From contig JAUCBJ010007194.1 of assembly GCA_032718475.1 (NCBI GenBank), positions 53,027 through 117,026 of the forward strand: a stretch of 64,000 bases of DNA. Reading direction: 5' to 3'. Each line of letters starts with the position of its first letter. The stretch's first letter is position 1. The position numbers and the translations under genes are program-made. Of this stretch, positions 11,505 to 37,256 are shown one piece after another. This DNA is from Nemertoderma westbladi. Its lineage: Eukaryota; Animalia; Xenacoelomorpha. The notes under the pieces are model-generated. The model made no database searches. It was not told the DNA's origin and saw only the letters and a list, made by a program, of their open reading frames with translations.

Positions 11505-11700
11505 ATTAAATAATTGAACGAAACCATAAGAAGTCAGTAGATCGATATAGGAAGATGAATCAGTGTTCGGTTGAAGTAGGTTAAAGTTCATATCACCAGT
11601 TATAATGATGTCAAGGTTATTTTTAGAAAGGTTAGAAAGGTTGAGTCCAGTACTGTTAGAAATTCAACGTGAGCTACAGAGTCGGGGCGATAGATTTTGT
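11505..11700 (-). pseudogene. APE endonuclease fragment of a LINE, probably the upstream part of 6747-7258
   Basis: Reads IYRPDS..IIITGDMNFNLL..DLLTSYGFVQL. Confidence 0.65.
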
Positions 11701-11763
11701 CGACAAGCCGGTACAGCATTCTTAAATATGCAGGTGCAATGCAGCATGCCGATCGTCGTAGTA
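11694..11763 (+). mobile_element. Short RTE 3'-end fragment
   Basis: Matches 48052-48120 (GACAAGCCGG..GCAGCATGCCGATC..TAGTAG tail). Confidence 0.75.
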
Positions 11764-12184
11764 GGCACTTAATACGGCATACACCATGTCCGAGAATAAG
11801 TGTTATACAAATTTTAATGAGATTGCATGAAATTTGAAACAGAGTTAGTTTCATCTCCCTCCTCCTTACTGGGTGAGTCTAGAACATATTTTTGCTTTCA
11901 TTCTTTAGCTACAAGGGTTTGAAAAAGGTGTCTCAGGCGATATTACACCAGTTACACCGCTGTTATTCTTGAATTTTATAGTGATTTGTTCGTAGCAATA
12001 GAATGCAATAGAAAGGATAAATTGCATGATAGATAATAAAGTGTCAATATTATACCACAGTACGGGGTCGCACTGTGAAACACCCTGATTACTTTTATTA
12101 AACCTATAAACTAATTAGTTATTTTTTCGCGACATTTCCAGTAGCGAAGGGGGGGGGGGGGGGGGGGGGGGGGTTTGTGAATAT

Positions 12185-13281
12185 TGTTGCCGTTATTCCC
12201 AACACCAGGGGGGAAAACGCCGATGCTGGAGGCGGAATTTTCAGACCACTTTATCCCGGCCAGTCACCGGATATTGGGAGTGGAGAAGGATGTTATCTGA
12301 GATGAAAGATTGCAGGTAGAGAAAAAGTTTCATTGGTAGGATATAATCTTTAATGTAACTTGAACCCTGATTGAATCTTGTTCAATACCATAATGAACCT
12401 TTATTGAGAATAATTTGGGCTTCCCCACACCAATATACCAAATATTCACAATAATACACAAATATAAATTCCTAAAGTAAATGATTTAATTACCCACTGT
12501 TCGCTTTCAGATTTTGACCTAACTAATGTTCCCCATTTTCCCTCGGTGCTAGTCCGGTACAGTAGTGTCAGTGTCGGTCGATCCTTCGCATGTCCATCCC
12601 ACCCTTCCCGAACCCTGACGGGATCGGTCATCAGGAAAGCAGTACGGCTTAGCTAGGGGTCTGTCAGTTCATGGCAGGGTCCCAACCACCAAAGCTTTTC
12701 GAATCCTTTTCAGGCTCGTAATCGCATCGGTAGCCGAGAAGCTGCTCTGAATAGTCAGTAGGTCAGTAGAATCCGGTTTTCTGTCTTTCGACCCTGTCGC
12801 ATGGCCGTCCCACCCTTCCTGAACCCTAGCGGGTTCGGTCATCAGGTAAGCGGTACGGCTTAGCTAGGGGTCTGTCGGCCCGTTGTGAGTCCCAACTGTC
12901 GGAGATTTCCGAGTCCCTTTCAGGCTCGTACTAACGCCAGTCGTGGAACCCACGCCAGGAAGTCTACTACTAGGATCGGCATGCTGCATTGCAGCTGCAT
13001 TTTTAAGAATGCTGTGCCGGCTTATCGACAAAATTGCACCGCCACAACTCCCTGTCACCCATGACATTTGCTCATGACACCCATGACAGGAAGTCAGTCC
13101 TCGTCGAACCCTTCCTTTCTGTCCGGTCAGTCGATCCTTCGCAAGTCCCCAATGCGAAGACTCCGGCCGAGTCCCTTTCAGGCTCAGTCGTAGCCAACGC
13201 ACCAGGAACCGCTTAGGATCTGTCAGTTCCCGTCGCAAATCCCCGGCGCAACCAGCTAAGCTTTCCGAATCCTTTTCAGGC
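12185..13281 (-). repeat. 3' LTR of D (U3 end and PPT deleted; contains ~200-bp tandem units)
   Basis: 12185-12388 and 12925-13281 match 36476-36909. Homology stops at 13281. Confidence 0.85.
12965..13086 (-). mobile_element. Short RTE 3'-end insertion in the D LTR
   Basis: Reverse complement of ~48010-48120. Flanked by duplicated CAGGAAGTC, which is single-copy in the other LTR at ~36714. Confidence 0.85.
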
Positions 13282-13354
13282 GTTTGGGAGGCGTTTGGGA
13301 ACGAGAAGTATCCGCTCCGCACGCCATTTCATGTGCGACGTTTCGGGCACTCAG

Positions 13355-15212
13355 TCACGCTCTAGTCTTTACGTGTGCGTTGGCGTACGTCTCGAACATA
13401 ACCATGTTCCCGGTAGCCGTAACGTCCTTGGTGGGACATTTGATGTTGCACCGAGGGCTCGCAGTATGCCCACGGAAACCGCACGTTGTACAGACGTTAT
13501 AGAGTGTCAGGCAAACCGCTACGTCATGGCCCGGGGTAGCGCAATATGGACAATAGAGTATCCCAAGGATTTAGAAGCAGCGTTCGGTAACTCGTTGTTT
13601 CTTAAGAAGTCTCTGAAGTCTCTTAAGGAGTCTCTGAAGAAGATTGGGATCTGTACGCCGGCATAGTATTCCAGACGTCTATCCTTTTTCGGGATAATTG
13701 TCGTAACCGGGAGCCCGCGGAAGGCTGTGCTGTTGCGGAGTTGGGCCTCGTTTCGGTATCCTTCTTTATGGTCCGCTGGATGCATCTCGGGTGCCCGTTT
13801 CTGACGGTATATCCACTCCATCTGTTCCGCGTACCATCGGGTGAGTCTCATTGGGTCTTGAGGAATGGTGGGAGCCGTCGCAACAGCCGGTCGGTCAAGG
13901 GGTGCTGGAATATTCGCTGAGGGAATCCTGAGGAGGTCTCCGGGTGTTGGTGGTATACTAGGACCCTTCGCGACTTGAATAGCTGATAGGGTCCGCTGTG
14001 TACTGGTACTTGGGGTTTCCGAAGACCAACCCTCTCCTCCAGGAAACGGGTATGGAGACAACCTCTTGCATGCATCGCCGAAGTCACTAAGCGCAAAGGC
14101 GGGAACTAGCTCTCTCGCCGGACTACCGGAGCCAAGCGGAGTAGCCGGCTTCCGTCGCAGGCTCAGCCACGGCAATACGCTTAGCAGCCGATCCGTAGGC
14201 AACTTCCGGTTCGAGTTGACGTTTTGGGGTGGATAGCAGAATGCCTTCTTGTTTCCATAACTCCTCCCCTTCCGACGATACCATAGGTTCCTCTGCGCCA
14301 AGGAGATGGGTAATTGTGGGGATATCGAATGGTCCGTGCAGATCCCAGGATTCGATAACGGCGAGCGTCTTGGCGTCTCCCGGTGGGATATTCTTCACCG
14401 CCTTGAATGCGTGGTCGATCACCTCGTTCCATTCGTAGTCTATGAAGGACCTTGGGACCGCGCTAATAAGTTTATCGAGGGTTTTACAGATAAAGTTGGC
14501 AACCGTAGTCGTTAGCATTAGCGTAGTCGTTCCGGATATACGCTTTTATATCCGACCCAATCTTGATAATATCGAAGTCGAACAAGACCTGTTGGATCAC
14601 CAATGGTAGTAGCCAGACCGCCCCAGCTGTCCGTAGTTCCTGTTGGGGTGTCGGGAAGATTCGACATATCAATACCAATCCGTCTAGGGTTCCGAGGACA
14701 ACGATTAGCGACCGACCATACTCCTTCATCCCGTATTTCTCTTTATAGTCGTCTCGGTTTTGGATGACTGTCATACGTTCCTCTCGCAGCGTCGCCGTAC
14801 ATTCCGCCAGGTTTCCCCACTGTGCGAGATAGGTACTCTTGTCGTCGATGAAACTATGACATTGCACCATTGTAACCGCCTTCGGAGTCGGCGTCGCATT
14901 GCCCTCGTTGTCGTATATTAGGCACCGGGATTTGTAAACGCTTCGCCGGAACGTATCCCAGAACGACAACTCTTCTCCTCTGATTGCCTCAGCGTTCCGA
15001 GTCCCTTTCAGGCTCGTACTTGCCTCGAACAACCGGAGCGCCTGCACGTTACGGGTATCCGGGGCCTCCCTCCCGGAGAAACGAATGACTCGCACATTCT
15101 CCTTCAACAGGGCATTCCATTTCGCATCAAAACTAGGAGATCCAGGTTGTGGATAGTCTAATGAATCAATTGTATTACTTAATTTGCCAAGAATCTGGCG
15201 ATTCGGGTCCAT
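13355..15212 (-). pseudogene. Extra 3' ORF of D: DEDDy-like 3'-5' exonuclease domain plus tandem CCHC zinc knuckles (frameshifted)
   Basis: Shows LIYDNEG (ExoI DxE), LIVVLGTLDGLVLICRI, LPLVIQQVLFDFDIIKIGSDI and YIRND (YxxxD). CPYCATPGHDVAVC and CTTCGFRGHTASPRC lie at 13552-13448, in a frame absent from the ORF track. The family call is by motif recognition only. Confidence 0.65.
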
Positions 15213-15728
15213 ATTGTAAATTATGTCCGTTACAAATTAAATCAGTTAATTATAAATCCAGAAAGTCTGATTCTATAGCGACTGCAGAATAGTTATTTTT
15301 AATGTAGTTAATATTATTGCTATATAGGCATCTATCATCTTATTGCAACTACATTCAGTATTTACAGTTACTATAGCTATACATTATTATCCAACCAGAT
15401 TTTTGACTTTTTATGTCCGCTTCTTTTTCAAATTCTTTTTCCATTCTACATTTTATACTTTTTTTTGTCTTTTTTATTTCTATAGTTTATACATTTCATA
15501 TTTCATTTCATTTCTTTCATATTTCATCATGTATTCCACATTATATCATTTATTCCATCATTACATCATTTATTACACATTTCATTGGGGTTATAGCCCA
15601 CCGGCTATCATCATTGGGTTATAAGCGCAAAGCATCAGGAATGCGCATCATCACATTTTCATCATCATCATAATACGCGTCATCATTCAGTTTATAGTGA
15701 GTTATCTGTTCCTTTTCATCATTACTTA

Positions 15729-16917
15729 TGTTCGCGCTTTCAGACCTTTGGCAGTTTAACCCGCCAAATTAGGATGTCTTCTAGATAATAAATCGCTTTA
15801 GCCTCTAACAAGTATTTGATTCACTACACTAGTTGAAACCAATCTGTGCGCGATCATTCACCCGTTGGATATACCCGGGAGATTGATTTCGACAGCTTAA
15901 TCGTATTGCTATGTAAGCCTAATGTATTATTCGACTGACAGTATTATATAATCTCTGACAATATTATTCACCTTCGGGAAATATTAACAGTTCCTTTAGG
16001 ACGTGGCGCTCTATCTATATAAACAGAGTTATGACTTAAACTACTCACAACGGTATGGCTTAGTTACAATTCACATATTTGGCGCATTCTTTAGGAAATG
16101 CTTCGTTATCAGTCTCACTCATACACAATGCTGCACAATACTGCACACTAATCTGCCGATCTTCACTGATTTTAGTCACATATAAAAGGAACACAGACCG
16201 ACTCATGTAGGGTCTATCAAATAACATTAAATTCACTTCAAACCACTTTAACATAAGTCACAATTGTTATATGTAACCTTTCTCTCTTACCTTCGGTATA
16301 TCAAGAATATTGGGTTTCGGGGTTATTTCTCGTTATTCCAAATATAATAATTCATCAACAAATATAATGAATAACCGACAGCAAAGCAGTAATGTTAAGT
16401 TAAGTTGCACAGTATGGGCCAGTTAACCAGTGTTAACCAGTGCAGATAACATTGAGTTACCCAGATAACGGATATATGTCCTTATAATTAAGCCTACTAG
16501 TGTAAGGCTAAAGCAGAAAAGCACAAAATACTCCAAAGCCGTTCTTCCTTGGCTCAGGACTGAATGATAACACTGCCCATAATGCATTACGTGATTTCTC
16601 GGAAATTTCTGTACAAGAGCCATAAAAATGCTCTGATTGGCTGACTGAACTAAGAGAGAACAAAGAAACAAAGAAATGTTCTACGTGGCAATATCAGCTG
16701 TTAGCCGTCGTCATGGTAGCGACACTGTTTTCAAGAGTATCCAGCTATTGCGTCACGAAATACGGATTATGTCCTTTAAAGTACACATACAGAAGCAATG
16801 GCTTTTATGTCCTCTAAAACACCAGTACAGTAAAGACACGGCCTTTTTATGCCTGGTAAACCAACTACAGAGTACTTTAAGGGAAAATAACCGGCTAATT
16901 ACGCAAAAGCTTTTACA
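15729..16917 (-). repeat. 3' LTR of A
   Basis: Near-identical to 26717-27906. Preceded on the minus strand by the PPT TGGGAGCGG. Confidence 0.96.
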
Positions 16918-16995
16918 CCGCTCCCAGAAAATGGGATTTAAGTCTATAAAATATAACAAATCACAGTTTCTAAAATATAAAGATACTCTAAACAG

Positions 16996-18324
16996 TTAGT
17001 CTTTCTTACGCAGACGGCGTTTACGCAGTTTTTTGAGGCTAGCAAGAGTCTTTTTCTCTTTGGGGGGAGCCACTTTACTAGGAGGGCCATAACTCCTGGG
17101 TAAAGGGTGCAATACAATTGCATTAGAAGGTTTGGGTTTACGGTCGGAGCCTCGTCCATTTCGATATGCTTCTCCTCGAGCTGATTTTCCTCCGCTTGTC
17201 ATGGGATACGTTCGTCCAAAACTCTCGCAGAGAATAGGGTTTTCTAAGCTTGATATCTTCTTAGAGATTCGAGATTTCCCAATCGAACTGAGATAAGGCC
17301 AATTCGTTTATCGATTGGACTTACTGTTATAACTTACGTTTATCTGAACAAACGCAGGTTTCTTTTTTGATCTTTATAGAATAGCGTTTAACTCGTTTCG
17401 TACAACGCTCTCCTTCACCTTGATGAAGGGTTGTATCGCGTTAAACGGGGACGACCATACGGTTGGATAGTGATATTAGGTGTCCGCGTCACAATCCGGC
17501 TAGGTAAGATGGGCGGCTAGCTAGAAATCACTGTCGGAGTGTTACCGATTAATTGTTAGGGTAGCACTAGATCTTTGAACAGTGAATACAGTCCGCGAGG
17601 ATCCGCGACACCACCAGGATCGCAGGTCTGAGGTCCAACTAAGGAATGAGGAGGTTTGACCGAGTATTCCGGGACTCTGATCGTAGGTTTACTCCAGGAT
17701 CGTTCGAGCCGAGTGAGCATAGGTGATACGTCAAACAAGTTTCGCTCGAAACTCCAGTAAATATAACGAGCACAACTGTGTTTAACACAACGTTTCCGTG
17801 GATGTTTATGTCTTTCCGTTTATTGGCTGGGTCTAGGGCATTTATCGTAATAATACCAAAGACGCACGTCTGGTAGGGGAAACGCGGATGATATTTATTT
17901 GTTGTTACAATGCTTCTATCAAGAATTCCAAATATATGTTGGAGTTACCGCGTTTATTTGTTTCTTTAATGTCTTTTCTTTCGAGTCGATTTCGAATAGG
18001 ATTTTCGCATTAGAATTTTGGTTTATCGTTTCGACTCCTCTGGGTAGGATATGTTCGACATAGTCCGTATCGTGTAAATCGATAGAATGGCCAATGGTTA
18101 AGAAGTCCATATACATACCATTACAATGCGTGTAGCGAGCGGTGAATTTTCCATAGTCCAATTCACGCGTAAGTTACTTCCAGGAAATCGTAGGTTCGAT
18201 ATAACGACCATCATCCTTCGTAGTAGTTGGACTAGTATCACCGCGTATCAAGCTATCAACAAACGCTTGAAAGTAGAGTATATCGCTCCCTGATACCAAG
18301 ACCATCTTCTATCAACTCCGTCAT
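16996..18324 (-). pseudogene. Decayed extra 3' ORF of family 1 in copy A
   Basis: Same MTELIED...KKLRKRRLRKKD pieces as in copies 0, B and C. Confidence 0.55.
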
Positions 18325-19986
18325 ATCTGCTATATATGAGTTTATTAATATTATAATGAGTTTATATTTAGGCTAGCGAGCGTCGCTGCCTACCCCAATC
18401 AGCCCCCGGACAGTGCGAGATCCTCAGCGCCGATGTGTCGTCGCCGCTGTACTTTCGCCAACGACGTAGCCGCACAACGACAACGACAACCGGCACAAGT
18501 CACTCGACTGTCCGTCCCAAAGGCTTAGATACACCTCAGGTTCTTACTGGAGAGTTAGGGTTACTTTCACAATTGCGACTCGCTACTGTAAACACACCTT
18601 AGTAGTAACATTCGCCTATAAACTCACAAATACCACACACACAACTTGTCACAAATTACACACACTCGGGCCATTTGTCCGTTAGTCAATGCCTTCCAGA
18701 ATGTCACTGTATTATTATGTATCCTTGGATACTAGCAGTGCGCTATTTATTCCCTATGCTATTCAATGGGACAAGCTTTCTATTGTTCTTTTAACTCAAT
18801 TCTAATTCTAGCGTGGTTGTTGCTATGGTGACATTATGCAAAGCTAGCGGTAGAATTAGGGTAATTCCAATGCATACAGATCTGGGATGTTATTTAATAG
18901 TAATTCTTTAATGGTCAATGTCCTGTTTTATACATGACTTTATGAATTTTATCGGCTATTGACTATGTTTGGGAGCCTTTCGCACACTCATACGCATAAT
19001 AAGATAAATCTCCGCTCCCTTGATCTATTAATTAATGGAATTTTGGGAATGTTATAAATTGCGTAAAAATGGCAATTTATTAAATTCATTAAAAGGCATG
19101 AATTTAAATTTATTCCCTGAAATTTTATTATTTGATAATTAAATTGACATATTTTGATTCTAGAACATGTCTGGGGACACAAGATCCTTAATTCTATGAA
19201 AATTGTCTTTTTAAGAATATCGGTAAATGCTACGATATCTTAATTGACTAGAATTGTTGAAGGATCTGAATTTTACAGATTTTGATTTATTAGATTTGCA
19301 AATATTAAATAATTAATATTTGAGATGGGCACCGATTTATTCCAGAACTTGTCTGGGGACGTTAACCACTGATTCTAGAATTTGTCTTTCAAGTATATCG
19401 GTGGGTGCCGCGATATCTTAATCGACTAGAATTACAGATGGTCAAAGGGTTTAACAGATTTATTTTGCGTTATACGCTACTGTTAAAGGGACATCACGCT
19501 ACTATATGTATTATTTAATATACGGTATGAGAGCAATATCGCACGAAGCAATGTCAGTGTGAAGAGGCAAGTCGTTTCCAAGGTCTACCCAGAGCTTGGT
19601 TTAGCCGAGACACGAGGATCTGAACTTTGCATTCCTAATACTCTGCCTACCAATAATACTTGAATATAGTAGTGGCTTTATTGTACTTTAATAAGTACGG
19701 ATATTTCATCTTTACTGTAGTCACGTATTTATAATATGATACGGACAGTAAGGAAAGAGAAAAAGAATTATTTCTCGCCGTCGCACTAAATATATATTAT
19801 ACGTAATTACGTACGTAATAAACGCGAATATATTGCACTAATCTACTAAATGATCGCTAAAATAACATTCTACTGAATAAAATTAAAGAAAACGATTATA
19901 ATAAAATTATATAGTAATACATACAGAAATATAAAAATAATAAAATAATATAAAATAATAGAGTCACACACCCACTCCATATGTTG

Positions 19987-22900
19987 TTACGTTATGGAGT
20001 CCCTAGATGTTTGAAGGATTAGGGAGGTGGTCGTGGGAAGAGAATCTTGCCTTCCACAGTTTCCGGAGAGTCCTCCATTCCCTTCCGGTAAACACAAACG
20101 ACCGACTGGGTGATTGAGTCGCTGCATCCCGAATACGATTCCAGGTTTCCTCTTCGTCCTGGAATAGTGACGATAGAAACATCGCTCTAAGTACACGACG
20201 GCCTTACAAAGCCGATTCCAGGAGCTATAGTGGTCCGTCGCTCCCTGCAGGAGAGGTGAGAGTCCCTGCGAGACGTCTGATGTTCCAGAGCTCCAATCGC
20301 TCCCTCTGATCTTCATGAAGGATCCACTCGCGGTGGGGAGGTCCAGATCCACGGCGTCGTCCCTGGCAATATGTAATACCGACAGATCTATCCCGGGTTC
20401 AAATAACTCCGCTCCACCCGTCCGGGTTTTAGGTTTAACTTTCTCCGCTCCCTTGGCTGGTCTAATCTCAGTCGGAGTAAGATGGGGAGGCCATTCATCC
20501 TCCTTACTCAGGAAGTCGGGTTCACCTAACCGGTCTGTAGTATCTGTCAGTTCTTGAGGAGTTGCTCCTCTGGAAGCGATGTCAGTTGGATTAAACTTCT
20601 TGGGGCAATATCTCCATTGATCTACATTGGAGCTAATATCGTCATTATCTGAGGAGTATGGTGTTCCCTCAGTTGGGTCGTCTCCCTCACTAGTATCATC
20701 TTCCCATTCACTCACCTGGCGGACGCGATCTTGAAGCAGTCTTTCTCTGAGCGTTCTTCGGGAAGGTCCAGTAAGGTACCAACCTACTCTAGTTCTTACC
20801 GCATAGGTCTGAAGTGGTTGCGGTTGAGCAGGTCGTTTCTCCAATGTCTCCAGCGCCTCATGCGCGTTTTGACTGATTAATATTTGTACTCCAGGATAAT
20901 CGGTGTCGAATCTAGGGATGTTAAGTTGTTGGGCATGATCATCTTCGTCCCAATTATAAGGTTCCACTTGGGTGGTAGCGAAGTTCTTTATTGCCACCAT
21001 TTTGACTGACCTTATACTGTATTCTCCTAGTTTATCCTGTGGAGTGGACAACTCACCTATATAATAGTCGGCAGCTACAGTAGAATTCCAAACCTGCATG
21101 ATCCCTGACATGTTTAGCTTGGTTCGGAACTTGGGTTGTCCAGCAAAGATGACTTCGGCTAGTTCTTTATCGATGAATGTTCCTGTGCTACCGGAGTCCA
21201 GGAGGGCGTTCACTATATAGCTCTTCTGAGGTCCGTGGACCCGTAACTGGACTACAGGAAATTCTCGGATTCCTATATTGGAAGTTGGCGCTTTCCAAGA
21301 TGGTTGTTGATCAGAAGTAGTTAAGGTAAGGTCGCTGTCTGTGTCTTTCTCATGCACGAGTGCTCGATACACTGCGGTGGTGTTTATTAGGTAACAGGAT
21401 TCGTTTTGGTCGGAGAACTCGTCCGTATAGAATCCTTCCATCTCAGATTGATCAGTGTCGTTCACATCACTGAATTGGACATGTAGTTCGGACTCACTTA
21501 CCAGACTCGGGCTGTTTCGTTCGAATTCCGTGTGCAACAAAATATGATGTTTTGCGCCGCACTTTGCACACCTTGCGTCGGAGTAACAGGTTCGCCGTTG
21601 GTGTCCTCGTCTGAGGCAATTATAACACAACCGCTTATCCCACATGACTTCACGTCTATCCTTTAGTGATTTCCTCAGGAATTTATCACACGCATTTAAA
21701 CGGTGGGGCCCGTCGCACAGCACACATTTCGGCTTGATGTTACTTACTTTAACCTGTGCTATGTGGTGCACACTTGTTCTTTCCTCGGGCTTTCTCACCT
21801 GAATTCTTTTAGGAGACGTAGGAGGGGTTTTTTGTACCGGTTCCCTTCTGTCATTGGGTCGAGACTTGGATTTACTTACCTGGTCTTTAGGCGTTTTATT
21901 GACATAATAAGATCTTTCAGTGTCTTTCCCGCTGTCCTCTCCTTGAGAGGTTTGGCTTTCGCCGTCGTCTGTATAACACATTGGTGTTACCCTTCTCTTA
22001 GAAACGGGTTTCTCACTTACCTTGTTTTCCAATGTCTTCTCTCTGGACTGCCTTAGGAGCTGTAATTTCACTTCTCTATCTAAGAATGACATGAGATCAG
22101 TCATGGTAGGGTCTCGTCGTTGTTGTTCCATCATATATAACACTTTCTTATCCCAGCGTGTACCTACTCCACCCTTCGGTAAAGTAGAAGCCACTGCTCT
22201 AATAACCATAGCACTCTGATACTCATGAGACTTACCTAGCCAATCTAATTGTCTGCAGATCTCCTGAATTTCATCGGAAAACTCTATAATCCCGTTGCTA
22301 ATAAACTTTCGGGGCGCTACCAACTTTGCATACAAATACCCAGCTATTTTATTCCTATTACCATACCTGATGTTTAGTGTATCCCAAACTTGTCTTAATC
22401 CGTCTGGATGTCCAATAAACTTTAACGCCATTAACTTGGGAGATCCTTCCAAGCACTCAATGAGGAATCTAAGTTTCTCTCCATTAGATAGTACAGAGTT
22501 CTGTATGTTATCTTTGTAATATTCATTAAAAGGTAACCATTTCATCTCATCTCCATTGAACTTGACGATCTCTCCCACCTTTACCGCTTGCCGGGCTTCG
22601 GTTCTAGCCATTTGACGCGTAAAACTTTCTTGGGCCATCGTGTTATTTAATATCGAGTTATCAGTATATAAATTTCTCGGATTATGATCCGTTCTATATG
22701 GAATATCCTTATCAACAGGTCTATAATTACCCTTAATAGGGTTCACTATAGGAGTTTCTACTTCGCTAGCAGTATAGATGCGTGTAGGCTCCACACCTTG
22801 CGCATGCGATACTTCAGACCTAACAGGTTGACACATTGTTACAGAGGGTGGTGGTATACTCTTTTGTGTATTTACTAATTTATCGCGTTCTAGCGCGATA

Positions 22901-25772: not shown

Positions 25773-26345
25773 TAATAAATATTACGCTACCCGTACAAAC
25801 CACTCAAACAAAATGCAGACCAAATACTGACAGACTACTATCAAGCCTAAATAAACTATAGGACATGCAGACTCCGAAATGATTAGGTAGTATGCGTTCT
25901 AACCCAGTAGTACGACTTATTCTTTAGATGGGGGTTTACCTTACAGCTTTGGCTGCCCCTACTTCCTAACCGTTCTTTATCGGACAGAGGCTCTACACAC
26001 ACTGCAATCCGTTCAGACCTAATAACAGCCAGACAACTATCCAGCCTACAAATTATCTAAATAAATATTATACGCTACCTGTACAGACTACACAAACAAA
26101 GTACAGACTAAACGATGGCAGACTACTCTCAAGCCTAAATAAACTACAGGACATGCAGACTCCGAAATGATTAGGTAGTATGCGTTCTAACCCAGTAGTA
26201 CGACTTATTCTTTAGTTGGGGGTTTACCTTACAGCATTGGCTGCCCCTACTTCCTAACCGTTCTTTATCGGACAGGTGATCTACACACACTGCAATCCGT
26301 TCAGACTTAACAACAATCAGACAACAGCTCAGCCTACAAATTGTC
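25773..26345. repeat. ~288-bp tandem duplication in the 5' leader of A
   Basis: GGACATGCAGACTCCGAAATGATTAGG occurs at 25861 and 26149 with continuing identity. Confidence 0.9.
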
Positions 26346-26704
26346 TGTACAATCTGATCAGGCTTACACGCCTTCTGTTCAATACTGGCCTACAAACAAA
26401 TAAAACTTGACAGAAATAAGTAAAAATCTCAATAAAAAACCAGGGCGGGCCCTCCCTGATTAATTATTAAGGCCTACCGGTATATAACTATCAAATTCGA
26501 ATAATACTAATGTACTTATACGGGAAGTACCGGTTAGGACAGTTAGGCCTACGGACCTACAGAAGTACCGGTTCTGGCAGTTGGACCTACGGACCTACGG
26601 CAGTACCGGTTCTGGCAGTTGGGCCTACTGACCTACAGATGTACCGTTCAGGTTTACCGGTTGACCGGTACTTTCAACTTTATTGCTTACTGCAATAAAG
26701 AAGC

Positions 26705-26716
26705 TATATCCGTTAT
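26705..26716 (-). promoter_or_regulatory. Non-tRNA PBS-position sequence of A, complementary to its own LTR
   Basis: Sense ATAACGGATATA abuts the 5' LTR and is the reverse complement of the sense LTR 12-mer at 27453-27464. Confidence 0.7.
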
Positions 26717-27906
26717 TGTTCGCGCTTTCAGACCTTTGGCAGTTTAACCCTCCAAATTAGGATGTCTTCTAGATAATAAATCGCTTTAGCCTCTAACAAG
26801 TATTTGATTCACTACACTAGTTGAAACCAATCTGTGCGCGATCATTCACCCGTTGGATATACCCGGGAGATTGATTTCGACAGCTTAATCGTATTGCTAT
26901 GTAATCCTAATGTATTATTCGACTGACAGTATTATATAATCTCTGACAATATTATTCACCTTCGGGAAATATTAACAGTTCCTTTAGGACATGGCGCTCT
27001 ATCTATATAAACAGAGTTATGACTTAAACTACTCACAACGGTATGGCTTAGTTACAATTCACATATATGGCGCATTCTTTAGGAAATGCTTCGTTATCAG
27101 TCTCACTCATACACAATGCTGCACAATACAGCACACTAATCTGCCGATCTTCACTGATTTTAGTCACATATAAAAGGAACACAGACCGACTCATGTAGGG
27201 TCTATCAAATAACATTAAATTCACTTCAAACCACTTTAACATAAGTTACAATTGTTATATGTAACCTTTCTCTCTTACCTTCGGTATATCAAGAATATTG
27301 GGTTTCGGGGTTATTTCTCGTTATTCCAAATATAATAATTCATCAACAAATATAATGAATAACCGACAGCAAAGCAGTAATGTTAAGTTAAGTTGCACAG
27401 TATGGCCCAGTTAACCAGTGTTAACCAGTGCAGATAACATTGAGTTACCCAGATAACGGATATATGTCCTTATAATTAAGCCTACTAGTGTAAGGCTAAA
27501 GCAGAAAAGCACAAAATACTCCAAAGCCGTTCTTCCTTGGCTCAGGACTGAATGATAACACTGCCCATAATGCATTACGTGATTTCTCGGAAATTTCTGT
27601 ACAAGAGCCATAAAAATGCTCTGATTGGCTGACTGAACTAAGAGAGAACAAAGAAACAAAGAAATGTTCTACGTGGCAATATCAGCTGTTAGCCGTCGTC
27701 ATGGTAGCGACACTGTTTTCAAGAGTATCCAGCTATTGCGTCACGAAATTACGGATTATGTCCTTTAAAGTACACATACAGAAGAAATGGCTTTTATGTC
27801 CTCTAAAACACCAGTACAGTAAGGACACGGCCTTTTTATGCCTGGTAAACCAACTACAGAGTACTTTAAGGGAAAATAACCGGCTAATTACGCAAAAGCT
27901 TTTACA
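26717..27906 (-). repeat. 5' LTR of A
   Basis: TGTAAAAGC...GCGCGAACA on the minus strand, with the TSD adjacent. Confidence 0.96.
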
Positions 27907-27949
27907 ACTTACTACATTCAACCATCTTCTTGGGAAATTTTCGTTGTGG

Positions 27950-28380
27950 AAGGGGTGTTACGCGGCAGTCTGGGATCTAAAGCTGGACTCATTACAACGC
28001 CTACGCCCCAAACTGCACACATAACGGACAATGAATAGAACGCTGGAAGTGAAGTCACGTGGAATGCACCAGGGACCCACCAGAATAACACTCCCAGAAA
28101 CATAAAGCTCAGCCAACAAAGTCATGTGGAATGCATCAGGGACCCACCAGAATAACGTGGCTGAGGAACATAAAGTCTCTATCGACGAAGTCATGTGGAA
28201 TGGTGTTACGCAACATTCTGGGATCTACAGCTGGACTCGTTACACCGCCTACGCCCCAAACTGCACGTAACGATCCCACCAGAATAACGCGATAGAGGGC
28301 GTGTTGCATGGCAGTCCGGGATCTACAGCTGGACTCGTTACACCGCCTACGCCCCGAACTGCACACGCAACGGACAACAC
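27950..28380. repeat. Interleaved direct repeats in the D region between pol and the extra ORF
   Basis: GGGATCTACAGCTGGACTCGTTACACCGCCTACGCCCC occurs 3 times (~27972, 28220, 28318). AAGTCATGTGGAATG..GACCCACCAGAATAAC occurs 2-3 times. Confidence 0.8.
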
Positions 28381-28466
28381 AATACAACATAATGGATACA
28401 ATGAATTCCATTTCGGAACTTTCCCATTTCTGATAATCCAAGGTAGTTGGTCCCGATACCAAAATC

Positions 28467-29215
28467 TACGGTGGCCCATAACTGTCACAGTATATAAAAA
28501 GGAACGGCAGAAATTAAAAAGCCACGGCAGAAATTAAAAAGCCACGGCAGAAATTAAAAAGCCACGGCAGAAATTAAAGAAGCTACGGCAGAAATTAAAA
28601 AGCCACGGCAGAAATTAAAAAGTAACTGCTATTGCTAGATTATATGAGTATGAGTGCCGACTGCAAGCTATTGCTATCGGCCAGTAAAAAAATAGGTAAA
28701 AAAAATAATAAAAAAAAAAGGTAAAAAAAAAGTAGAAAAAATAGGTGAAATGTAAAAAAGGTAAGGTAAAAATAGGTACGAAAAAATATTTGCTATAATG
28801 TGTTGTAATAATCACGGCTTTTTAATTTCTGCCGTGGCTTTTTAATTTCTGCCGTAGCTCCTTTAATTTCTGCCGTGGCTTTTTAATTTCTGCCGTGGCT
28901 TTTTAATTTCTGCCGTGGCTTTTTAATTTCTGCCGTGGCTTTTTAATTTCTGCCGTGGCTTTTTAATTTCTGCCGTGGCTTTTTAATTTCTGCCGTAGCT
29001 TCTTTAATTTCTGCCGTGGCTTTTTAACTTCTGCCGTGGCTTTTTAATTTCTGCCGTGGCTTTTTAATTTCTGCCGTGGCTTTTTAATTTCTGCCGTGGC
29101 TTTTTAATTTCTGCCGTGGCTTTTTAATTTCTGCCGTAGCTTCTTTAATTTCTGCCGTGGCTTTTTAATTTCTGCCGTTCCTTTTTATATCCTGTGACAG
29201 TTATAGGACACCGTA
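28467..29215. mobile_element. Non-autonomous foldback DNA transposon with 20-bp tandem-repeat TIRs
   Basis: TACGGTG..CATAACTGTCACAG / CTGTGACAGTTATAG..CACCGTA termini. Unit AAAAAGCCACGGCAGAAATT ~6x on the left and ~18x inverted on the right. 6-bp TSD AAAATC at 28461-28466 and 29216-29221. Confidence 0.9.
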
Positions 29216-29401
29216 AAAATCAGGGTGAACAAAACATAAACTACCCTGCGTCAGTCGAAACATCTGTAGGGTGACGCTGGACTCCACATAACACGCGAGG
29301 AAACACAAAATACCATGCGTGGTTACAGTTGGTTTAAGGGGGGTCCATATTCATTGTCGGTAAATCACATTTAAAGAGTTTGTCAACAGGATGGGAAGGG
29401 T

Positions 29402-32400
29402 TTAAACGGGTTTATCATTGTCACCAATGTCCGCAGCAGGATCCAGAGTAGGGAACTTATCACCTCTCGTGGAGTTACCACTGTCATTGCCTTTGAGAAG
29501 GCACAGCCTCTGGATAGGGCTTTGGTAGTGGCCCTTTGCCGTTCGTATCGTCACTGTTCTCGCAAATCCATCTTTGCTAGGGGTTATCTCCACGACACGC
29601 GCCACAGGCCAGTGGACGCGGTCTTTAAGGTCTTCAGTGACATGGTACTTCACCAACTGCGACATTCCGGTACGTATTATTCCATTTTCTCCTTGTTCGG
29701 AGGGTTATAAGGTACCCCTGGGCCCAGATTCTCCACCAATGCGCCGCCAGCACTTGGGCCTTCTTCCAGTTTGTGTGTTTCACGATGTCTTTGGGATCCT
29801 GGAACATGGCCTCCGGAAGGATGTTGGTCTTAGGTCTACCGAGGAGATGGTTGGGTGTGAGGGGTTCCAGATCGGTTGGGTCGTCATGGATGGGAACGAT
29901 TGGCTGGTTGTTTAAGGTGGCCGTGATTTCGCAGAATGTGGTGCGCAACGTATCATGAGTGACCCGGGTATCCCCTAACACGATTCGCATGGATCGTTTC
30001 ACTAGATCAATGAGTTTCTCCCATACCCCGCTCGTATGGGGTGCTAGGGGTGTTTGGAAGTGCCATTGGATGTGGTGTTCCTTCCAAACGTGTGATGCGG
30101 TTTCGTCAGTAAACCATCCCTCGATAGCCTCTCTGAGTTCCCTTACTCCTCCCACAAAGTTCGTCCCGTTATCTGAGTACATATGCCGGCAGGAACCGTT
30201 GTTCGCCACGAACAGAAGCAGGGTGTTGATGAATGCGTGCTGCGTGAGGTTCACTATGAGGTCCAGGTAAATCGCCCTCGATCTTAAGCATGTAAAGATG
30301 GCTCCCCAGCATTTAATGTTGGATCGTCACTCAATAACCGTAAATGGTCCGAAGCAATCTACGCCGGTTCGGTTACGTAGAACGGCGGCGAGTCGGACTG
30401 AAGCCGCGTGGTTGGCAGATCGGCCATTCTTTGGGTGAGCGGTGGCGCTAGATATCTCCTGCAAGGGAAACACCATTTCAATACTTTCCGAATCAGTGGC
30501 TGGTTGTGGGTGATCCAGTATCGTTGCCGGATATTGGCCATGATCCAGTTTTGGCCCGCGTGATGATTTTCCTCATGAAATTGTTGGACTAGCAGCTTGG
30601 CTAGTGTAGACGTTCCTGGCAGAAGTGTCGGATACTTAATCTCATACTCGACCGGGGCGTTCGCCATCCTGGTATTAAGGCATATCAATCCGTCCTCTCC
30701 CATCATGGGTCTCAACTGGTAGACCGGGCTGTCAGGTTTCAAAGTCCTGCCCGCATTGAGCTGCTCCCATTCGTCGGGGAAACTTTCTTTCTGGACATAT
30801 CTCACAATACATTTCTCCGCGATAATGAGTTCTTGTATACTCCACCGAACTATCGGTTTGTTATCCTTCCACCGCAGGAAATTACGGAGGGTCATAACGT
30901 GGCTGGTTGCTCGGTAGTCGCAACGTTATAGTGCCTGCCCGAGTCCTTTGCAGGCTCAATCAGACAGCTATAGATCTCCATGGTGGTGCTCCCACGGACC
31001 TTGCGGATCTCCTTATTGTCTTCCGAATATTTCCCGCTATCTAATCCGGGATCAAATTGGGTGCTCCAGGTTCGTTGCGATTGCTTTAGGAATTCCGGAC
31101 CCGTAAGCCAGAGTTTATTCCTACCGAGCTATCGTGGGGTGGTGCCTCGGCTCGATAAGTCCGCCGGTTTAACTTTCCCATTTACATGATGTCACTGTTC
31201 TCTGTTGGTGCACTGTTTTATTTCCGTGGCCCGGTTCGCCACGAACGTTGTGTGTCGCCGTGATGGTGAATGGAGGTAGTAGAGTACAATGCTGGAATCG
31301 ACCCAGAAGTGTTGAGATTCAATGGGGATTCTAAGGTTTCGCATAATCATGCGGTTTTGTCTTACGACCCAGACTGCAGCTTGCAACTCGAGCCTTGGGA
31401 TAGTTGCCACAAATTCCCCGGATACCATCTTCGCTTTGGAGAATAAGAAACTAATATTGCCGTTTCCATCTTGGCTTAATCTCCGGATATATGTAACAAT
31501 ACCGTTTCCAGTATTCGAGGTATCCGAGAAGGTATGTAGCTGGAATATGTCGGTGGGCAGCTTGTTGAGGAAGAACGGTCGAGGAATTCGCATAAGGTGG
31601 AGCTGTTCAAGTTGCTCCATCCACTTCTTCCATTTAGCGCTAAGGTGTGGGGGGAGTTCTTCATCCCATCCCAGTCCTTCGATCCACATCTCTTTAATTA
31701 GATTCATTCTGGCCAACGTTACCGGGGATATGAAATTCAAAGGATCGAATATGGCACTCTTTATGGACAAACATCCCCTCTATGTCATTGGTTTGGGTAG
31801 GGGGTTATGTTTGAAGATAAACTGGTCCAGTTTTATGTCCCATTCAATACCAAGTACGCGGTGGTCTACACCCTCGGAATACATTTTATCATTATCCAAC
31901 TTGATCTCTTCCGGTAGCCTTTCCATAAGCTCTTTGTCATGTGATCTAAATTTTACTAGGGCAAAACCTCCCCTCTTTAAGCATTCTACCATTCCAATGG
32001 CGAGCTGGTATGCCTCGTCAACATTTTCGGCGCCAGCGCATCCATCATCCACATAAAAACATCTCCGGATGGTCTCGATAACAGTCAGAGGGAACTCATT
32101 TTCGCACATGGTCGCAGTTTTCTTCAACATGTCGCTACATGTGACTGGCGAATCCTTCGCACCAAAGATCCGGACAATCATATACATTATGTCCACATCC
32201 TCCGAAGTTAGTTGATTTATCTCTTGTGGGGTTAATGCCTTGTCTGTCCATAGAATACGGAGGCAATCAGAATCTCGTGGTAGAGTTTGCACTTGGTGGA
32301 ACATTGCCTTGATGTCACACATGAAGGCTACTTTATTCTCCCGGAATCGGATTAATACGCCGATCAGTGTACTGTATATGTTAGCTCCGGTATATAGCTG

Positions 32401-35400
32401 GCTATTCAACGATTCACCTTGGTACATAGCTGCCGCATCATTCACTACCCGTATCTTTCCGCCCTTCCGGGCCTCTACTACATAGTGGGTCGGAAGATAG
32501 TAAGTCCGTTTTGTCCCCATCAGTTCGTCTGGGGGAACCATCTCCGCTAATCCATCTTCCAGATATCCCTTGATTACATTGTTATATTTTTCTTTGATCT
32601 CGGGTAGCTTGTGCAACCTGCGTAAGATCCCCTTTAGCCTCCTCAGGTCCATACTAGTATTGTTAGCCATCGGTCTGTCCGGATCCTTCCATAACATTGG
32701 TGAGCACCAATGCCCGTCCTTAAACACTGCTTGATCTAGGACGTCCACACAGTATTGGTCCTCCTCCGATGGGTTTTCATCCTTTTCGGCAAATTCTTGG
32801 GTTTCCAGGTTGAAGTATTTCGTCATCTCTTGTTGTGACGTTTCCGTTTCCAGGAATAGATCCTCATCCATATCGGTCGCTGAACAGTAACCCACGGATG
32901 TTGTATTCCCTTCAATCTGACACTTGGGAGGTATGTATAGGTGTTGGTGGTTTCTTCTTTAATCCCGCAGAGTGTCCATCCCATAATGGTGTGCTCTGCG
33001 TAGAAACCATCATCCGGCTTTACGGAACGGGCGATATCTCCAGTTGGTATATGCAATTCTGGGGTATCGAGTACAATAAGTAACGTAATTCTGTTAACGT
33101 TCAATGGTGGGCATCTTAGATCCACGTCCTCTCAATCTAGTTGTATAAGGGGTGCGTATTCGGAGGATTGTCGGAATCGCACTCTGAGATCGGTATGCAC
33201 CAGGGCGTTTTTAATAGTTAGTTTTACCCTTTCATAACCTGCCATAACCCCTTCTACACTGAGTTGCACCTCTCCGGACTCCACTTCCTTATTGTCCGTT
33301 ATAGTTTGTATAGGTCGCTTGCAGGGCTCGTATTCTAGACCCAGCTGTCCCAGAAAGTCCCCGTCGATTATAGTCCCGTCCGACCCATTATCCAGGAACG
33401 CAAGTGTGGTCAAGGATTTCCCGATGCCTTGGATCCTCACTGGTATTACCTTGGCAAAAACCATATACCGTCGGTTGATCAGGTTGACCGTAGCCGATAT
33501 GCTGGTCACGTGTGCTACGTCTGCGGTGGTCTTGAACGGGTTTGTTTCTTTCCGTTGGATCATCCGAGGGCCTTTTGAGACGTGGTTGGTTTCCCCTCTC
33601 CGCTTGGATTCGATACGGAATGGTAATGTAGTGAAGTCGAAGTTTGCGGGAATGTGGAGGAGCGTGTGATGTCGTAGATCATTACAAACCGCACAACATG
33701 ACCTCTGTTCGCAATCCCTCACATAGTGGCCTGTGCCAAGACACTGGAAGCATCCTCGGTGTTTCATGATTGCTTCAAAGCGCTGGACAAGTTCTGCGAA
33801 CTGGAACTTTCTGCAGAATTCTACTTTGTGCTTCTCTCCACAGAAGAGACATAGAAGGGAGGTTGTTGTGCCTTCCCTCTCGGGCGCCCAATTTGCCAGA
33901 TAGCACGCCCATTCTTCTGCTGATGTCGGTTCCTCATAATCCTCGTCGTCCGAATCCTCAGCCATGGTGATGGCCATCGTACTTACCGGAGGAGGGCGGA
34001 ATCTCGATTTTGGAGTGGGTGCCCTGCTCTCTATCCCATCCAACTTGGAGAGACTTTGCTTAGAGAACATGGAGTCGTTCATGGCCTCGGAGATATTATC
34101 TAGGAATGCCGACATTTCAAGAAAACTAGGATACCGATCCGGGTGTCTTCGCCTGAGATCTACACATTTATATGCCCATTTACTTTGTAGCCATCCGGGA
34201 AATTTCCGGGCAATTTGTCTAAGGTTTAATAAATTATTTATTTGTTCTTCTTTGTTTAATGGTTTCAAAGTATAATAAGCATCCTTCATTGAGTCCGAAA
34301 ACTCTTGTATATTCTGTGGGTCTTCTAGGGATCCAGCATTGTGTATCAGTTTCTCAAGTGTCTTGTTAATTATGGTTCCAACGTTGCCATATCTTTTATC
34401 GAGCGTTTTCCACGCATCGTGATTCGCTTCGTGAGATCCTCCTTCGAAACATGTAACAATGCGGCGTGGTTTGTCACCCAGATACTGAGACAAATATACC
34501 AATTTTTGTGCATCGGTGATGTCCGTCGATCCGATTTGAGCAAAGAACCGTTTTTTAAACCCGAGGTAGTCGACGGGGTCGCCCTCGAAGGTACGAATTT
34601 CCATCTTAGGCATAGCCAGACGGTTCTCCAAGGCTCGTATGATACCGACGTCGTCTGAACTGGAATGACTAGGAGGTCCGTAATTACTAACGCTTTCTCC
34701 CATACATGATGGATCGATAAGAGGGGTGGTTTTAATAATGACGCGGTTACGGATTTTAGGAGTAGACGTAAATAGATTAGTGGATAGAGGGGTGGCGTCA
34801 CGTTCCGAGTCGTTTTCAGGCTCATACTTGTTTGTAGAAGCTCACCGTAGGATTGAAAGGGAAATAAGGTTCCTCGTTCTTAAGAGTAACCGGTGGGGGG
34901 TGGAAAACCGGTGTTTGAGCCGAGAGTGTGGACCGTATAACCGACGGAAGCTTGGCTTTCGGAGGTTTTACTGCCAGTGGTGTAAACGACTTCTCTAATT
35001 CTGGAACCGGGATTGGTTCATAGTCCTGTTCTATACACTTCTCCCAGTACTCGTATAGTTGAAGGTCTCGTTCTATGCGTGCGGCTTCATAGTCTGCGAG
35101 TTTAGCAATATCCGCATTCTTCTTGTGAATTCTTCTTCTTCTTGTTGGGCCTCGGCATTCCGTTTACGCATTTTGGCCTCTTGTTTACGTATTTCGGCCT
35201 GTTGTTCAACCTCCTGTTTCCGTATTTCTGCCTGTTGTTCGGCCTCTTGTTTATGTCTTTTGGCCTCTTGTTTCCGTATTTCGGCCTGTTGTTCGGCCTT
35301 GCAGATCGAACAGGATGTACTAGCAGAAGAAAGCAACCATTTACGCATTTCGGCCTCTTGTTTACGTCTTACGACCTGTATTTCAGCCTCTTGTTTATGT

Positions 35401-36065
35401 CTTTCGGCCTGTATTTCGGCCTCTTGTTTATGTCTTTCTTCTGCTAGTACGTCCCGTTCGATCTGCAATTGAACATATTCATCTTCCATCTGGGCTTTAA
35501 GGGCCAGTGCCCTCTGTTCTCGTAACTGATCTCTAAGGGGTTGACCCCCTTGGGAACTACGCGCTGATCCGGATACCTCGCTCCTGGCGCTGGAGTGCTG
35601 GTGCCTCGAGGACCCAGTCCTTTTTCTCAGAACCAATGTCCTGGTACCGGAGGTCCGCACTGATTCCATGTCTGCCTTTTCAGTCCTTTTGTAATATTGT
35701 TCCTCATAACCTCTCACGAGGCTAAGGGTCCTCCGATGTTGTTAACGGAACTCTTCCAAGTGTGTGGAATGTTCCTCCATTCTGGGGTAGTTCTCCAGAG
35801 TGGTTGCGGGAATGAGCTCTTGGTATGCTTGTAACATTTGTTCGTATCGTTGGAGGATATTCCTGATCTTTTGTAACTGAGTTTGTATATCGCTGAGGGG
35901 GGTCTCGACTCCCCTTAGTTGTTTCTCGATGCGGTTATAGGCCCGAGAGACCCCGCCCTTGAGAGCGCCCAATCGACGTGCCATGTTTCTTACATTTGGG
36001 ACCTCATCGGTGTCTGAGTCTGTATGAGGCTCTACTCCTTCGGTATCGTAGGCGTTGTCCCCCAT
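29402..36065 (-). pseudogene. Bel/Pao gag-pol of D, broken by frameshifts and stops
   Basis: Capsid (FEGDPVDY..QKLVYLSQYL), knuckles, PR (FLDNGSDG), RT (CDIKAMFHQV, FYVDDG), RH (LHTFSD..TIPRLEL), IN (HEENHH..CFPC, SDNGTNFVG, WEKLI) and C-terminal HWPVARVVE. Confidence 0.95.
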
Positions 36066-36256
36066 TACTCTAGTGCTGCATTTATCGCCAAGTATGTGAT
36101 GTAATAAAATAGTTCGTCATACGTTTCGTATTCAGCTTGAACTACCCGGAAGGTAATTCTAAATCGTCCCACGTTGGTACCCTGTACCTCAACTTCGATG
36201 TGCCAGATTCCGGGTTCAACTTGGATTATATCAATAGGCGTGATCGATACTTCCAT
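36065..36256 (-). CDS. 63-aa upstream ORF overlapping the D gag start by TAATG
   Basis: The ORF stop overlaps the next ATG (GAG TAA TG). Could also be a frameshifted gag N-terminus. Confidence 0.35.
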   Translation of the reverse strand: MEVSITPIDIIQVEPGIWHIEVEVQGTNVGRFRITFRVVQAEYETYDELFYYITYLAINAALE

Positions 36257-36461
36257 TGCCTGTTAATAACTCTCTGTCAATGATCTGCTGACTACGAGTT
36301 CTAGACAGTTTGGATTGAGTTTGTGAGTGGATTAAAACACGACTTTGTCTCAAATCAAATACCAAAGTTTCCTCGTAGTGGGTGCTGGTTAAGCATGGAG
36401 ATAATTTAAAGAATACTTGTCTGTTGAATTCCCAACTTCCACCAGTTGAAGTTGACCGCGT

Positions 36462-36473
36462 ATTATTCTCAAT
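36462..36473 (-). promoter_or_regulatory. Non-tRNA PBS-position sequence of D, complementary to its own LTR
   Basis: Sense ATTGAGAATAAT lies 2 nt after the 5' LTR and is the reverse complement of the sense LTR 12-mer at 12403-12414. Confidence 0.65.
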
Positions 36474-36475
36474 TT

Positions 36476-37256
36476 TGTTGCTGTTATTCCCGACACCAGG
36501 CGGGAAAACGCCGATGCTGGAGGCGGAATTTTCAGACCACTTTATCCCAGCCAGTCACCGGATATTGGGAGTGGAGAAGGATGTTATCTGAGATGCAAGA
36601 TTGCAGGTAGATAAAAAGTTTCATTGGTTGGATATAATCTTTAATGTAACTTGAACCCTGATTGAATCTTGTTCAATACTTGTTCGTACTAACACCAGTT
36701 GTGGAACCCACGCCAGGAAGTCAGTCCTCGTCGAACCCTTCCTTTCCGTCCGGTCAGTCGATCCTTCGCAAGTCCCCAATGCGAAGACTCCGCCCGAGTA
36801 CCTTTCAGGCTCAGTCGTAGCCAACGCACCGGGAACCGCTTAGGATCTGTCAGTTCCCGTCACAAATCCCCGGCGCAACCAGCTAAGCTTTCCAAATCCT
36901 TTTCAGGCTCGTAATCGCCGCTGGTGGCCAGGAACCGCTAAGGGCAGTCCTTGTCCCCAGGCCTAGCGGGTTACCAACTACCGAAGTAGACGGAGGTTGT
37001 CTAGGCCTAAATAACTATCAGGCAACCCTGATAGCTGAGATTGCTTGATTTTGCCTCCCACCCCTGGCCCTTAAATATCTGATATGATACCCGTGCCCCT
37101 TAAGTCACCCCAATTATCGCCCATAAATCGCCCCCAGTCTATCAAATATGCCCGAATTTTATGTTCCCGCACCCACTACTGATATTGGCATATTCTTAAA
37201 AAATAAATCTACAAAATATTTAACTCGCGTTATGATAAAGTGAAATACCGCGAACA
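36476..37256 (-). repeat. 5' LTR of D (781 bp; internal ~535-bp segment missing relative to the 3' LTR)
   Basis: TGTTCGCGG...GCAACA on the minus strand. TATA-like TATTTAA at ~37071-37077. Confidence 0.88.

Follow-up and report, generated by a model that had tools for sequence, protein, structure and literature searches.

What might a single 19-nucleotide (nt) hairpin be doing when it is repeated nine times, always in one orientation, along a retrotransposon and even inside its coding regions? The question is raised by a 64,000-nt stretch of the genome of Nemertoderma westbladi, referred to here as the window, in which the copies lie within a decayed BEL/Pao long terminal repeat (LTR) retrotransposon that we call element D. 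Six copies are found in the LTRs and one each in gag, in pol and in an extra open reading frame (ORF) downstream of pol. Our analysis suggests that the repeated hairpin is a real, family-specific RNA feature, and we tentatively favour the explanation that it is a landing pad for a protein that escorts the RNA of the element.

Nine copies of one predicted hairpin

Scanning both strands of the window for the 19-nt motif with up to 4 substitutions returned exactly nine sites, all on the minus strand. An earlier reading made from the sequence alone (the sequence-only reading) had listed these same coordinates in a single orientation, and the scan bears it out, since it returned those sites alone. 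The copies are given below from the 5' to the 3' end of the element, with stem-loops and folding z scores as predicted.

36893..36911, minus strand: type A hairpin with AUUA/GAA flanks, in a stem-loop at about 36860-36941 (z sense -2.12, antisense +0.45)
36795..36813, minus strand: type B hairpin with one core pair broken, in a stem-loop at about 36760-36847 (z sense -5.28, antisense -1.81)
34806..34824, minus strand: gag copy upstream of DUF1759, with AGUA/GAA flanks and one core pair broken, read as E-P-E-N-D-S
30940..30958, minus strand: pol copy in the variable RNase H-integrase linker, with a GCAA loop, type-B flanks and its own extended stem (z sense -2.02, antisense +1.14)
14998..15016, minus strand: extra-ORF copy with AGUA/GAA flanks, read as S-L-K-G-T-R in a frame other than that of the gag copy
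13266..13281, minus strand: shortened type A hairpin, 3' part only
13168..13186, minus strand: type B hairpin, in a stem-loop at about 13133-13220 (z sense -5.69, antisense -2.03)
12910..12928, minus strand: type C hairpin with AGUA/GAA flanks, in a stem-loop at about 12879-12959 (z sense -1.56, antisense +0.28)
12700..12718, minus strand: type D hairpin with an AUUA flank, in a stem-loop at about 12661-12758 (z sense -6.37, antisense -0.92)

With a weight matrix trained on the 5 U3 copies only and then scored over the window, the internal copies reached 33.2 (14998), 27.3 (30940) and 26.8 bits (34806) and the shortened copy at 13266 reached 18.2 bits, while the best other site scored 12.4 bits. 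In the 8.7-kb internal region of D, 1.7e-5 matches with at most one mismatch are expected by chance. Moreover, in an unbiased search for 19-mers with at least three near-copies this motif was the sole dispersed repeat of the internal region; the same search found none in four other retroelement regions of the window and one AT-rich seed in the whole of a younger element nested in D. Thus, D carries multiple stem-loops with a common recognition motif along its length, and their spacing is wide and fairly even. A search by shape only gave 6 sense matches, all of them known copies (shuffled mean 0.09), and no degenerate extra copies. A tenth candidate at 14147 was rejected, as its 8.1 bits correspond to the background level. 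The best look-alike outside D belongs to a 212-nt inverted repeat (96%) at 4318-4844 that resembles a miniature inverted-repeat transposable element (MITE). A peptide repeat was rejected too, because the copies are read in two frames (the pol frame is uncertain, with a frameshift just downstream).

The core is predicted to fold into a 4-bp stem, a bulged A on the 3' side, a 3-bp stem and a GNRA loop. This is the minimum-energy fold with all 7 pairs in 5/8 full copies, and in 2 further full copies it is found at minimum energy with the terminal U-G pair open. On the sense strand, 6/8 full copies can form all 7 core pairs; on the antisense strand, 0/8 can. The copies at 34806 and 36795 each have one mismatch, as had been noted from the sequence, and each of these breaks one core pair. 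The motif is retained as sequence as well as shape, which fits readout by a protein. Rfam gave no match at the gathering score in the 64 kb; two chance matches at E 3-4 were obtained in 12150-15300, and none at E<=2 in 27800-37200. We discarded the idea that the antisense strand forms a histone-type stem-loop, because the closing pair of the consensus is lost in copies with U-G on the sense strand. Comparison of the cores by eye, together with the Rfam result, led us to discard hammerhead and hairpin ribozymes as well.

The six LTR copies represent four diverged U3 unit types, and only A and B are present in both LTRs. Therefore, one RNA would carry 7 distinct sites, four in U3 and three internal. 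The earlier reading had taken the LTR copies together as not independent, and this is corrected to four diverged types of which two recur in both LTRs. For each U3 unit, an irregular stem-loop some 90-100 nt long is predicted that carries the hairpin at its apex, and G-U pairs account for 0.15-0.27 of the pairs in these stems. When the five full U3 units, two of them LTR twins, were aligned, two-sided changes were seen at 6/27 consensus pairs of the structure derived from this same alignment, all in the carrier stems; the count was matched by 1/500 shuffles, and slid controls gave 0-3. These predictions suggest that U3 is a structured RNA region, as the response elements of Rev, Rex and Rec are. 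A hairpin on the sense RNA is thus supported, albeit through the long U3 stems and the flanks described below rather than through the weaker argument with which it had been proposed. In a comparison of this D copy with the host contigs (40 of 619 differences listed), the majority letter at 12699, 12905 and 13166 agreed with sister copies and not with the decayed D copy, and a difference at 13159 keeps a pair. Among the differences listed, 0 fell inside the cores versus 1.0 expected, a result that is uninformative.

The flanks that close the core fall into classes. Opposing AGUA (5') and GAA (3'), a loop-E signature, is found at 12910, 14998 and 34806, which makes 3/7 distinct sites; two sites (types A and D) have the AUUA variant of the 5' flank, and the signature is absent from two (type B and the pol copy). 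Between the 12910 copy and those at 14998 and 34806, identity extends precisely to -4 and +3, the edges of this signature. Type B shares with the pol copy Y-G-A-Y / G-G-C-R flanks that lengthen the stem, position -4/+4 being C-G in U3 type B and U-A in the pol copy. In the ribosomal sarcin-ricin loop, a GNRA tetraloop sits one pair above a bulged-G motif. Here, the opposing AGUA and GAA recall the loop-E or bulged-G motif as it has been defined (PMC4695836, PMC5737476), but 8 pairs and a bulge separate it from the tetraloop, and the hairpin is therefore not a ribosomal mimic.

Since each internal copy matches a U3 class, it may have been copied from U3. The independence of the three internal copies, which the sequence-only reading had asserted, is put in doubt by the flanks that they have in common with the U3 types. 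The extra-ORF copy is identical to the 12910 copy over 26 nt, and its pair probability in context is 0.34-0.88, depending on flank length. The energy model does not score loop-E motifs, so that folding of the gag and extra-ORF copies may be understated. At the gag copy, about half of the depth in host contigs has an alternative letter at position 1 that also pairs, and the 7 of 18 loose-end rows listed, in which X1 and X3 are one sample, keep the 5' half and the AGUA flank next to a different upstream sequence. No variant was listed at 34802-34822, but this blank was rejected as a sign of core invariance or as a guide to whether the gag mismatch is family-wide. It is an effect of a 31-nt end filter: in some run, each of the 32 rows keeps that distance or more from the end of its contig, and the contigs mostly stop at 34828-34831. 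Contigs of the one sample (X1, X3) join the type-C copy (12933) to the extra-ORF copy (14995), which reflects either misplacement over the common 26 nt or a variant in which two hairpins are neighbours. From further joints (15 of 33 listed), the number of U3 units seems to vary in the family. The pol copy falls within 30900-30960, where homologues start a hydrophobic helix with the pattern P-L-x-x-L-I. In D, the frame that continues from RNase H (frame uncertain) gives polar residues at this position, and the linker protein looks as if it were yielding to the RNA motif, subject to the same doubt about the frame.

Element D, its extra ORF and its neighbours

The features of D other than the hairpins are as follows.

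12185..37144, minus strand: element D, a decayed BEL/Pao LTR retrotransposon, with a TG start at 37144 and a CA end at 12185
36476..37144, minus strand: 5' LTR, with segments 95-96% identical to the 3' LTR
13325..15236, minus strand: extra ORF downstream of pol, in several frame pieces and with two CCHC zinc knuckles
12185..13281, minus strand: 3' LTR remnant, its 5' part gone
12400..12405, minus strand: AATAAA, a candidate poly(A) signal, downstream of every U3 hairpin unit

A 5-bp target duplication surrounds the element (37145-37149 and 12180-12184). The Pfam domains follow the order DUF1759, Asp_protease_2 (below cut-off), Peptidase_A17, Integrase_H2C2 and DUF5641, which is the BEL/Pao gene order of gag (DUF1759), protease, reverse transcriptase (RT) and RNase H (Peptidase_A17) and integrase (H2C2, DUF5641). 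The assignment is also backed by tblastn with BEL homologues. The closest protein relatives (120 of 156 listed) are 35-42% identical, all with PF05380, and among the matches listed the named relatives are from cnidarians, echinoderms, molluscs, a bryozoan, a flatworm and insects, which points to an animal as the host. Host contigs with many diverged copies cover 30/30 bins of the 3' region of D, and the family is therefore high-copy in the host. The AATAAA at 12400..12405 is the sole one in the terminal regions scanned and presumably serves as the poly(A) signal.

Both LTRs have suffered deletions. The 5' LTR is internally deleted with a junction at about 36680-36690, within the 5' arm of the third hairpin unit, and the junction of the 3' LTR remnant lies within the 5' arm of a type-A hairpin (13281-13292). 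The junctions are thus located in a hairpin 5' arm in 2/2 cases, each with a short local duplication, where n=2 events and the break points are blurred by 2-4 nt. Later insertions comprise a younger BEL element, a MITE-like array and a 109-nt repeat. The nested BEL element (15729-27906) has LTRs that are 99.2% identical and sister copies at 1-4320 (plus strand) and about 44237-62131, and no dispersed repeat was found in the internal regions examined of this element and its sister copies. The MITE-like insertion at 28471-29238 is a pair of arrays of 20-21-nt units in opposite orientations. The 109-nt insertion (12964-13072) lies between U3 units B and C; it is also found at 48014-48121 and 11694-11764 and is very abundant, with a depth in host contigs of about 1e6 versus about 16 for unique pieces. 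In the spacer that separates pol from the extra ORF (27965-28368), a second repeat of about 50 nt is present in three copies, each of which is predicted to form a modest stem-loop.

The extra ORF had been described from the sequence as encoding an exonuclease with zinc knuckles. The two knuckles, which start at 13552 and 13492, were confirmed, with Pfam matches to zf-CCHC_6 (E 0.038) and zf-CCHC_4 (E 0.083) that are both below cut-off, but the exonuclease label was confirmed by no tool. There was no nuclease match in Pfam, no PDB match and no homologue among longer proteins, atlas look-ups were blank, and a further search gave 4 unrelated weak matches. A D-x-E after a hydrophobic strand resembles, by eye, the Exo I pattern of DEDDy exonucleases, which tools did not confirm. 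The structure model, with a predicted local distance difference test score (pLDDT) of 31, was too poor for fold comparison. A loose pattern for a leucine-rich export signal fits the ORF at two places, and this pattern is common by chance.

The motif was also sought beyond the window. Among relatives with DNA, an RT query against viral contigs gave 19 pattern matches and a gag query against metagenome contigs gave 163, and 0 were confirmed in either set. Patterns of the motif itself were found at 12 viral and 55 metagenome loci, which were counted as chance because 0/67 had a second copy (<=2 mismatches) or a BEL protein. No family protein spanning the motif was present among 1561 candidates (longer proteins) or 20 (shorter proteins). 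Neither cis-acting RNA signals of BEL/Pao elements in general nor a repeated hairpin of this kind were found in the open-access literature, an earlier report elsewhere being possible, and PMC3362945 yielded nothing on the motif.

Two further loci of the window deserve a description. At 7452-11362 lies an ORF of a non-LTR-type RT, interrupted in frame by nine 42-nt repeats that encode a Pro/Ser-rich tract; it is without a Pfam match, and its motifs look CRE-like. At 40344-43238, the ORF of a BEL gag carries an internal tandem duplication of 1.1 kb (99.5%) and sits inside a 270-nt direct repeat that splits an RT-encoding fragment of a long interspersed nuclear element.

Possible roles of the hairpin

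A protein-binding role of the hairpin is reasonable to assume. The explanation that we favour, with confidence that stays somewhat below an even chance, is a multi-copy post-transcriptional element for export or transport, bound by a protein. Folded on the element RNA as a GNRA-capped hairpin, the 19-nt repeat would form a multi-copy landing pad, through which the long unspliced RNA would be escorted from the nucleus or towards the place where it is used. The near-invariant letters would be read by one protein. The U3 units would hold the hairpin at stem tips, with a loop-E motif directly beneath it at three sites. The U3 cluster would come to lie immediately upstream of the AATAAA, at the 3' end of each transcript, where it may nucleate binding, and the internal copies, at about 2.3, 6.2 and 9.2 kb from the element start when later insertions are left out, would spread it along the genomic RNA. 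The most likely partner would be the protein of the extra ORF, which carries two zinc knuckles, or failing that a factor of the host for export or localisation; possibly, about half of the confidence that we place in such an escort belongs to the knuckles as its partner.

In favour of this explanation we count a recurrence far above chance and confined to D, the folding of the U3 units on the sense strand only with two-sided changes in their carrier stems, the extended stem that the pol copy has of its own, the host-contig letters that agree with sister copies, and the two knuckles of the extra ORF. Several observations weigh against it. None of the 7 core pairs shows a two-sided change, and the covariation in the carrier stems comes from the small alignment described above. 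The wobble pattern of the core, from which a fold on the sense strand had been argued, fits the sense strand only but is weak when taken alone, as 5/7 distinct substitutions keep the fold (P=0.126). The absence of shape-only copies with diverged sequence also fits recent copying. The loop-E flanks are missing from type B and from the pol copy. In context, the gag copy with its broken core pair has a z of 0.0 and no hairpin fold, and the extra-ORF copy (z 0.04) is no better than shuffles. At 12691, the family majority has a letter with which a G-U pair predicted in unit D becomes a mismatch. Besides, an arginine-rich stretch is absent from the extra ORF, with at most 4 R (6 R+K) per 12 residues in the four frame pieces of the broken ORF, for which a spliced product is possible.

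Dispersed packaging signals, with Gag binding each hairpin and the spaced copies nucleating assembly on the genomic RNA, are the alternative to be taken most seriously, although we regard it as rather unlikely. It would suit the wide and fairly even spacing of one and the same hairpin along the element as well as the Cys/His knuckles in Gag, and the bulged A with the tetraloop recalls the operators of coat proteins; multiple dispersed packaging signals are described for many RNA viruses (PMC6281560, in part). The sequence-only reading had drawn this comparison, and its sense hairpin stood, whereas packaging lost weight as 4/7 sites are in the U3 that is common to every transcript. Moreover, 5/7 sites (U3 and extra ORF) would also be present on a subgenomic extra-ORF RNA, and packaging sites would therefore not single out the genome. 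With the U3 cluster at the 3' end of every transcript, a transport element suits better than a genome-selecting packaging signal. The 5' leader has no site, the shape-only search revealed no degenerate copies, and the side of the bulge and the loop are unlike those of the MS2 TR. We consider it improbable that only the U3 stems function, in stability, 3'-end formation or strand transfer, and that the internal copies are inert, having arisen by template switching from U3 during reverse transcription and being tolerated in linkers. The 26-nt identity of the 14998 and 12910 copies and the class flanks in common speak for such an origin, as do the variable linkers that house the gag and pol copies and the weak folding of two internal copies in context. 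Nevertheless, there are three separate in-frame copies bounded at the motif edges, the pol copy has its extended stem in different letters, and the persistence of the 5' half and AGUA flank of the gag copy in family copies with a rewritten upstream flank also argues otherwise.

The remaining alternatives act on DNA, on the integrity of the RNA or on the opposite strand. U3 is the usual enhancer region of such elements, and the clustering of the repeats there, together with core letters conserved as sequence, could indicate a DNA binding site, either an enhancer motif or the target of an anti-silencing protein as in VANC/VANDAL; sequence-specific DNA binders encoded by transposable elements do exist (PMC5735166, in part). 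Strict single orientation and asymmetric half-sites make this very improbable, and long G-U-rich arms that fold on one strand and covary would be needless for a double-stranded site. Slightly less credible still is a site of cleavage, pausing or recombination, where the hairpin would cleave itself, be cleaved by the extra-ORF protein or make reverse transcriptase stall. Both LTR deletion junctions of this copy within a hairpin 5' arm would fit it, and so would the variable U3 unit numbers in the contigs with one 12910-14998 joint. However, no Rfam ribozyme matches, the short duplications at both junctions make the break point imprecise and are what ordinary DNA repair could leave, and cuts inside gag and pol would destroy the genome. 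The least probable of all is an antisense 3' splice or trans-splice acceptor, reading TTNCAG and then G across the junction on the plus strand. TTNCAGGC is kept on the plus strand in 9/9 copies, but the pyrimidine tract is just 5-7 nt, and the self-complementary flanks, the AGUA/GAA edges and the long stems on the sense strand only would be left unexplained. As judged from the letters, both the antisense acceptor and the DNA site fit the data poorly.

Comparison with known systems and implications

For the location of an escort element, precedents come from retroviral transport elements. The Rex response element (RxRE) of human T-cell leukaemia virus type 1 (HTLV-1) is located in the 3' LTR, the MusD transport element (MTE) beside the 3' LTR and the post-transcriptional element (PTE) of murine leukaemia virus (MLV) inside pro-pol (PMC4588558, in part), and the Rec response element (RcRE) of human endogenous retrovirus K (HERV-K) is found in U3 (PMC11379458, in part; see also PMC10746203). 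The location of the D hairpin matches that of these transport elements, which we counted in favour of an escort. Similar to RxRE and RcRE, D would have a multi-stem RNA in U3 or the 3' LTR of all transcripts and an extra protein encoded by the element itself. In contrast to these systems, D repeats one short hairpin on four stem tips plus coding regions, its extra protein has zinc knuckles without an arginine-rich motif, and its host element is of the BEL/Pao type. A constitutive transport element (CTE) of the NXF1 type has an AAGACA-type binding loop. This loop is not in the motif; AAGACA-type sequences occur at 10 scattered places in about 12 kb, one of them in U3. The CTE of Mason-Pfizer monkey virus, the MusD MTE, the MLV PTE and the SERV-K/MER11 CTE resemble the D hairpins in being structured and acting in cis, from a place close to the 3' LTR or within pro-pol, but they are single, 160-1400 nt long and bound by host factors (PMC4588558, PMC11379458).

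The MS2 operator has a bulged A on the 5' side, an (x)xYA loop and many degenerate sites (PMC6281560, in part). Like it, and like dispersed packaging signals as they are described there, D repeats along its length a short hairpin that combines a bulged A with a loop of four bases, but it differs in its 3' bulge, its GNRA loop, its few near-identical sites and their clustering in U3. An extra ORF3 with a DEDDy nuclease has been reported for the LTR elements Vesta and Juno of bdelloid rotifers (PMC5408684, in part). The extra ORF of D is likewise downstream of pol and resembles a DEDDy nuclease by eye, without confirmation by tools. However, these elements belong to other lineages, and the consulted part of that source does not mention a repeated RNA motif ('stem-loop' 0 occurrences). 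Taken together, the D hairpin is likely comparable to retroviral transport and response elements in place and purpose. It is not classed as a Rev/Rex/Rec system, a CTE, an MS2-type operator or an Rfam family, and the absence of an arginine-rich motif from the extra ORF is the reason why D is not filed with Rev, Rex and Rec.

A more far-reaching proposal, to which we give only a small chance, is that this BEL/Pao family evolved an accessory system like those of complex retroviruses, in which the hairpin is a self tag that licenses export, protection and packaging. Its reader would be the twin-knuckle, possibly nuclease-bearing extra protein, and the four U3 stems would present the hairpin with its loop-E foot, which would also be embedded in the sequences of gag, pol and the extra ORF. 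What extra ORFs do in invertebrate LTR elements is described as open (PMC5408684, in part), and the hairpin together with the knuckle ORF offers a concrete RNA-protein pair that is amenable to testing. If the proposal is true, a group of retrotransposons outside the retroviruses would mark its RNA with a dedicated repeated tag, and would keep this tag even at the cost of rewritten protein linkers.

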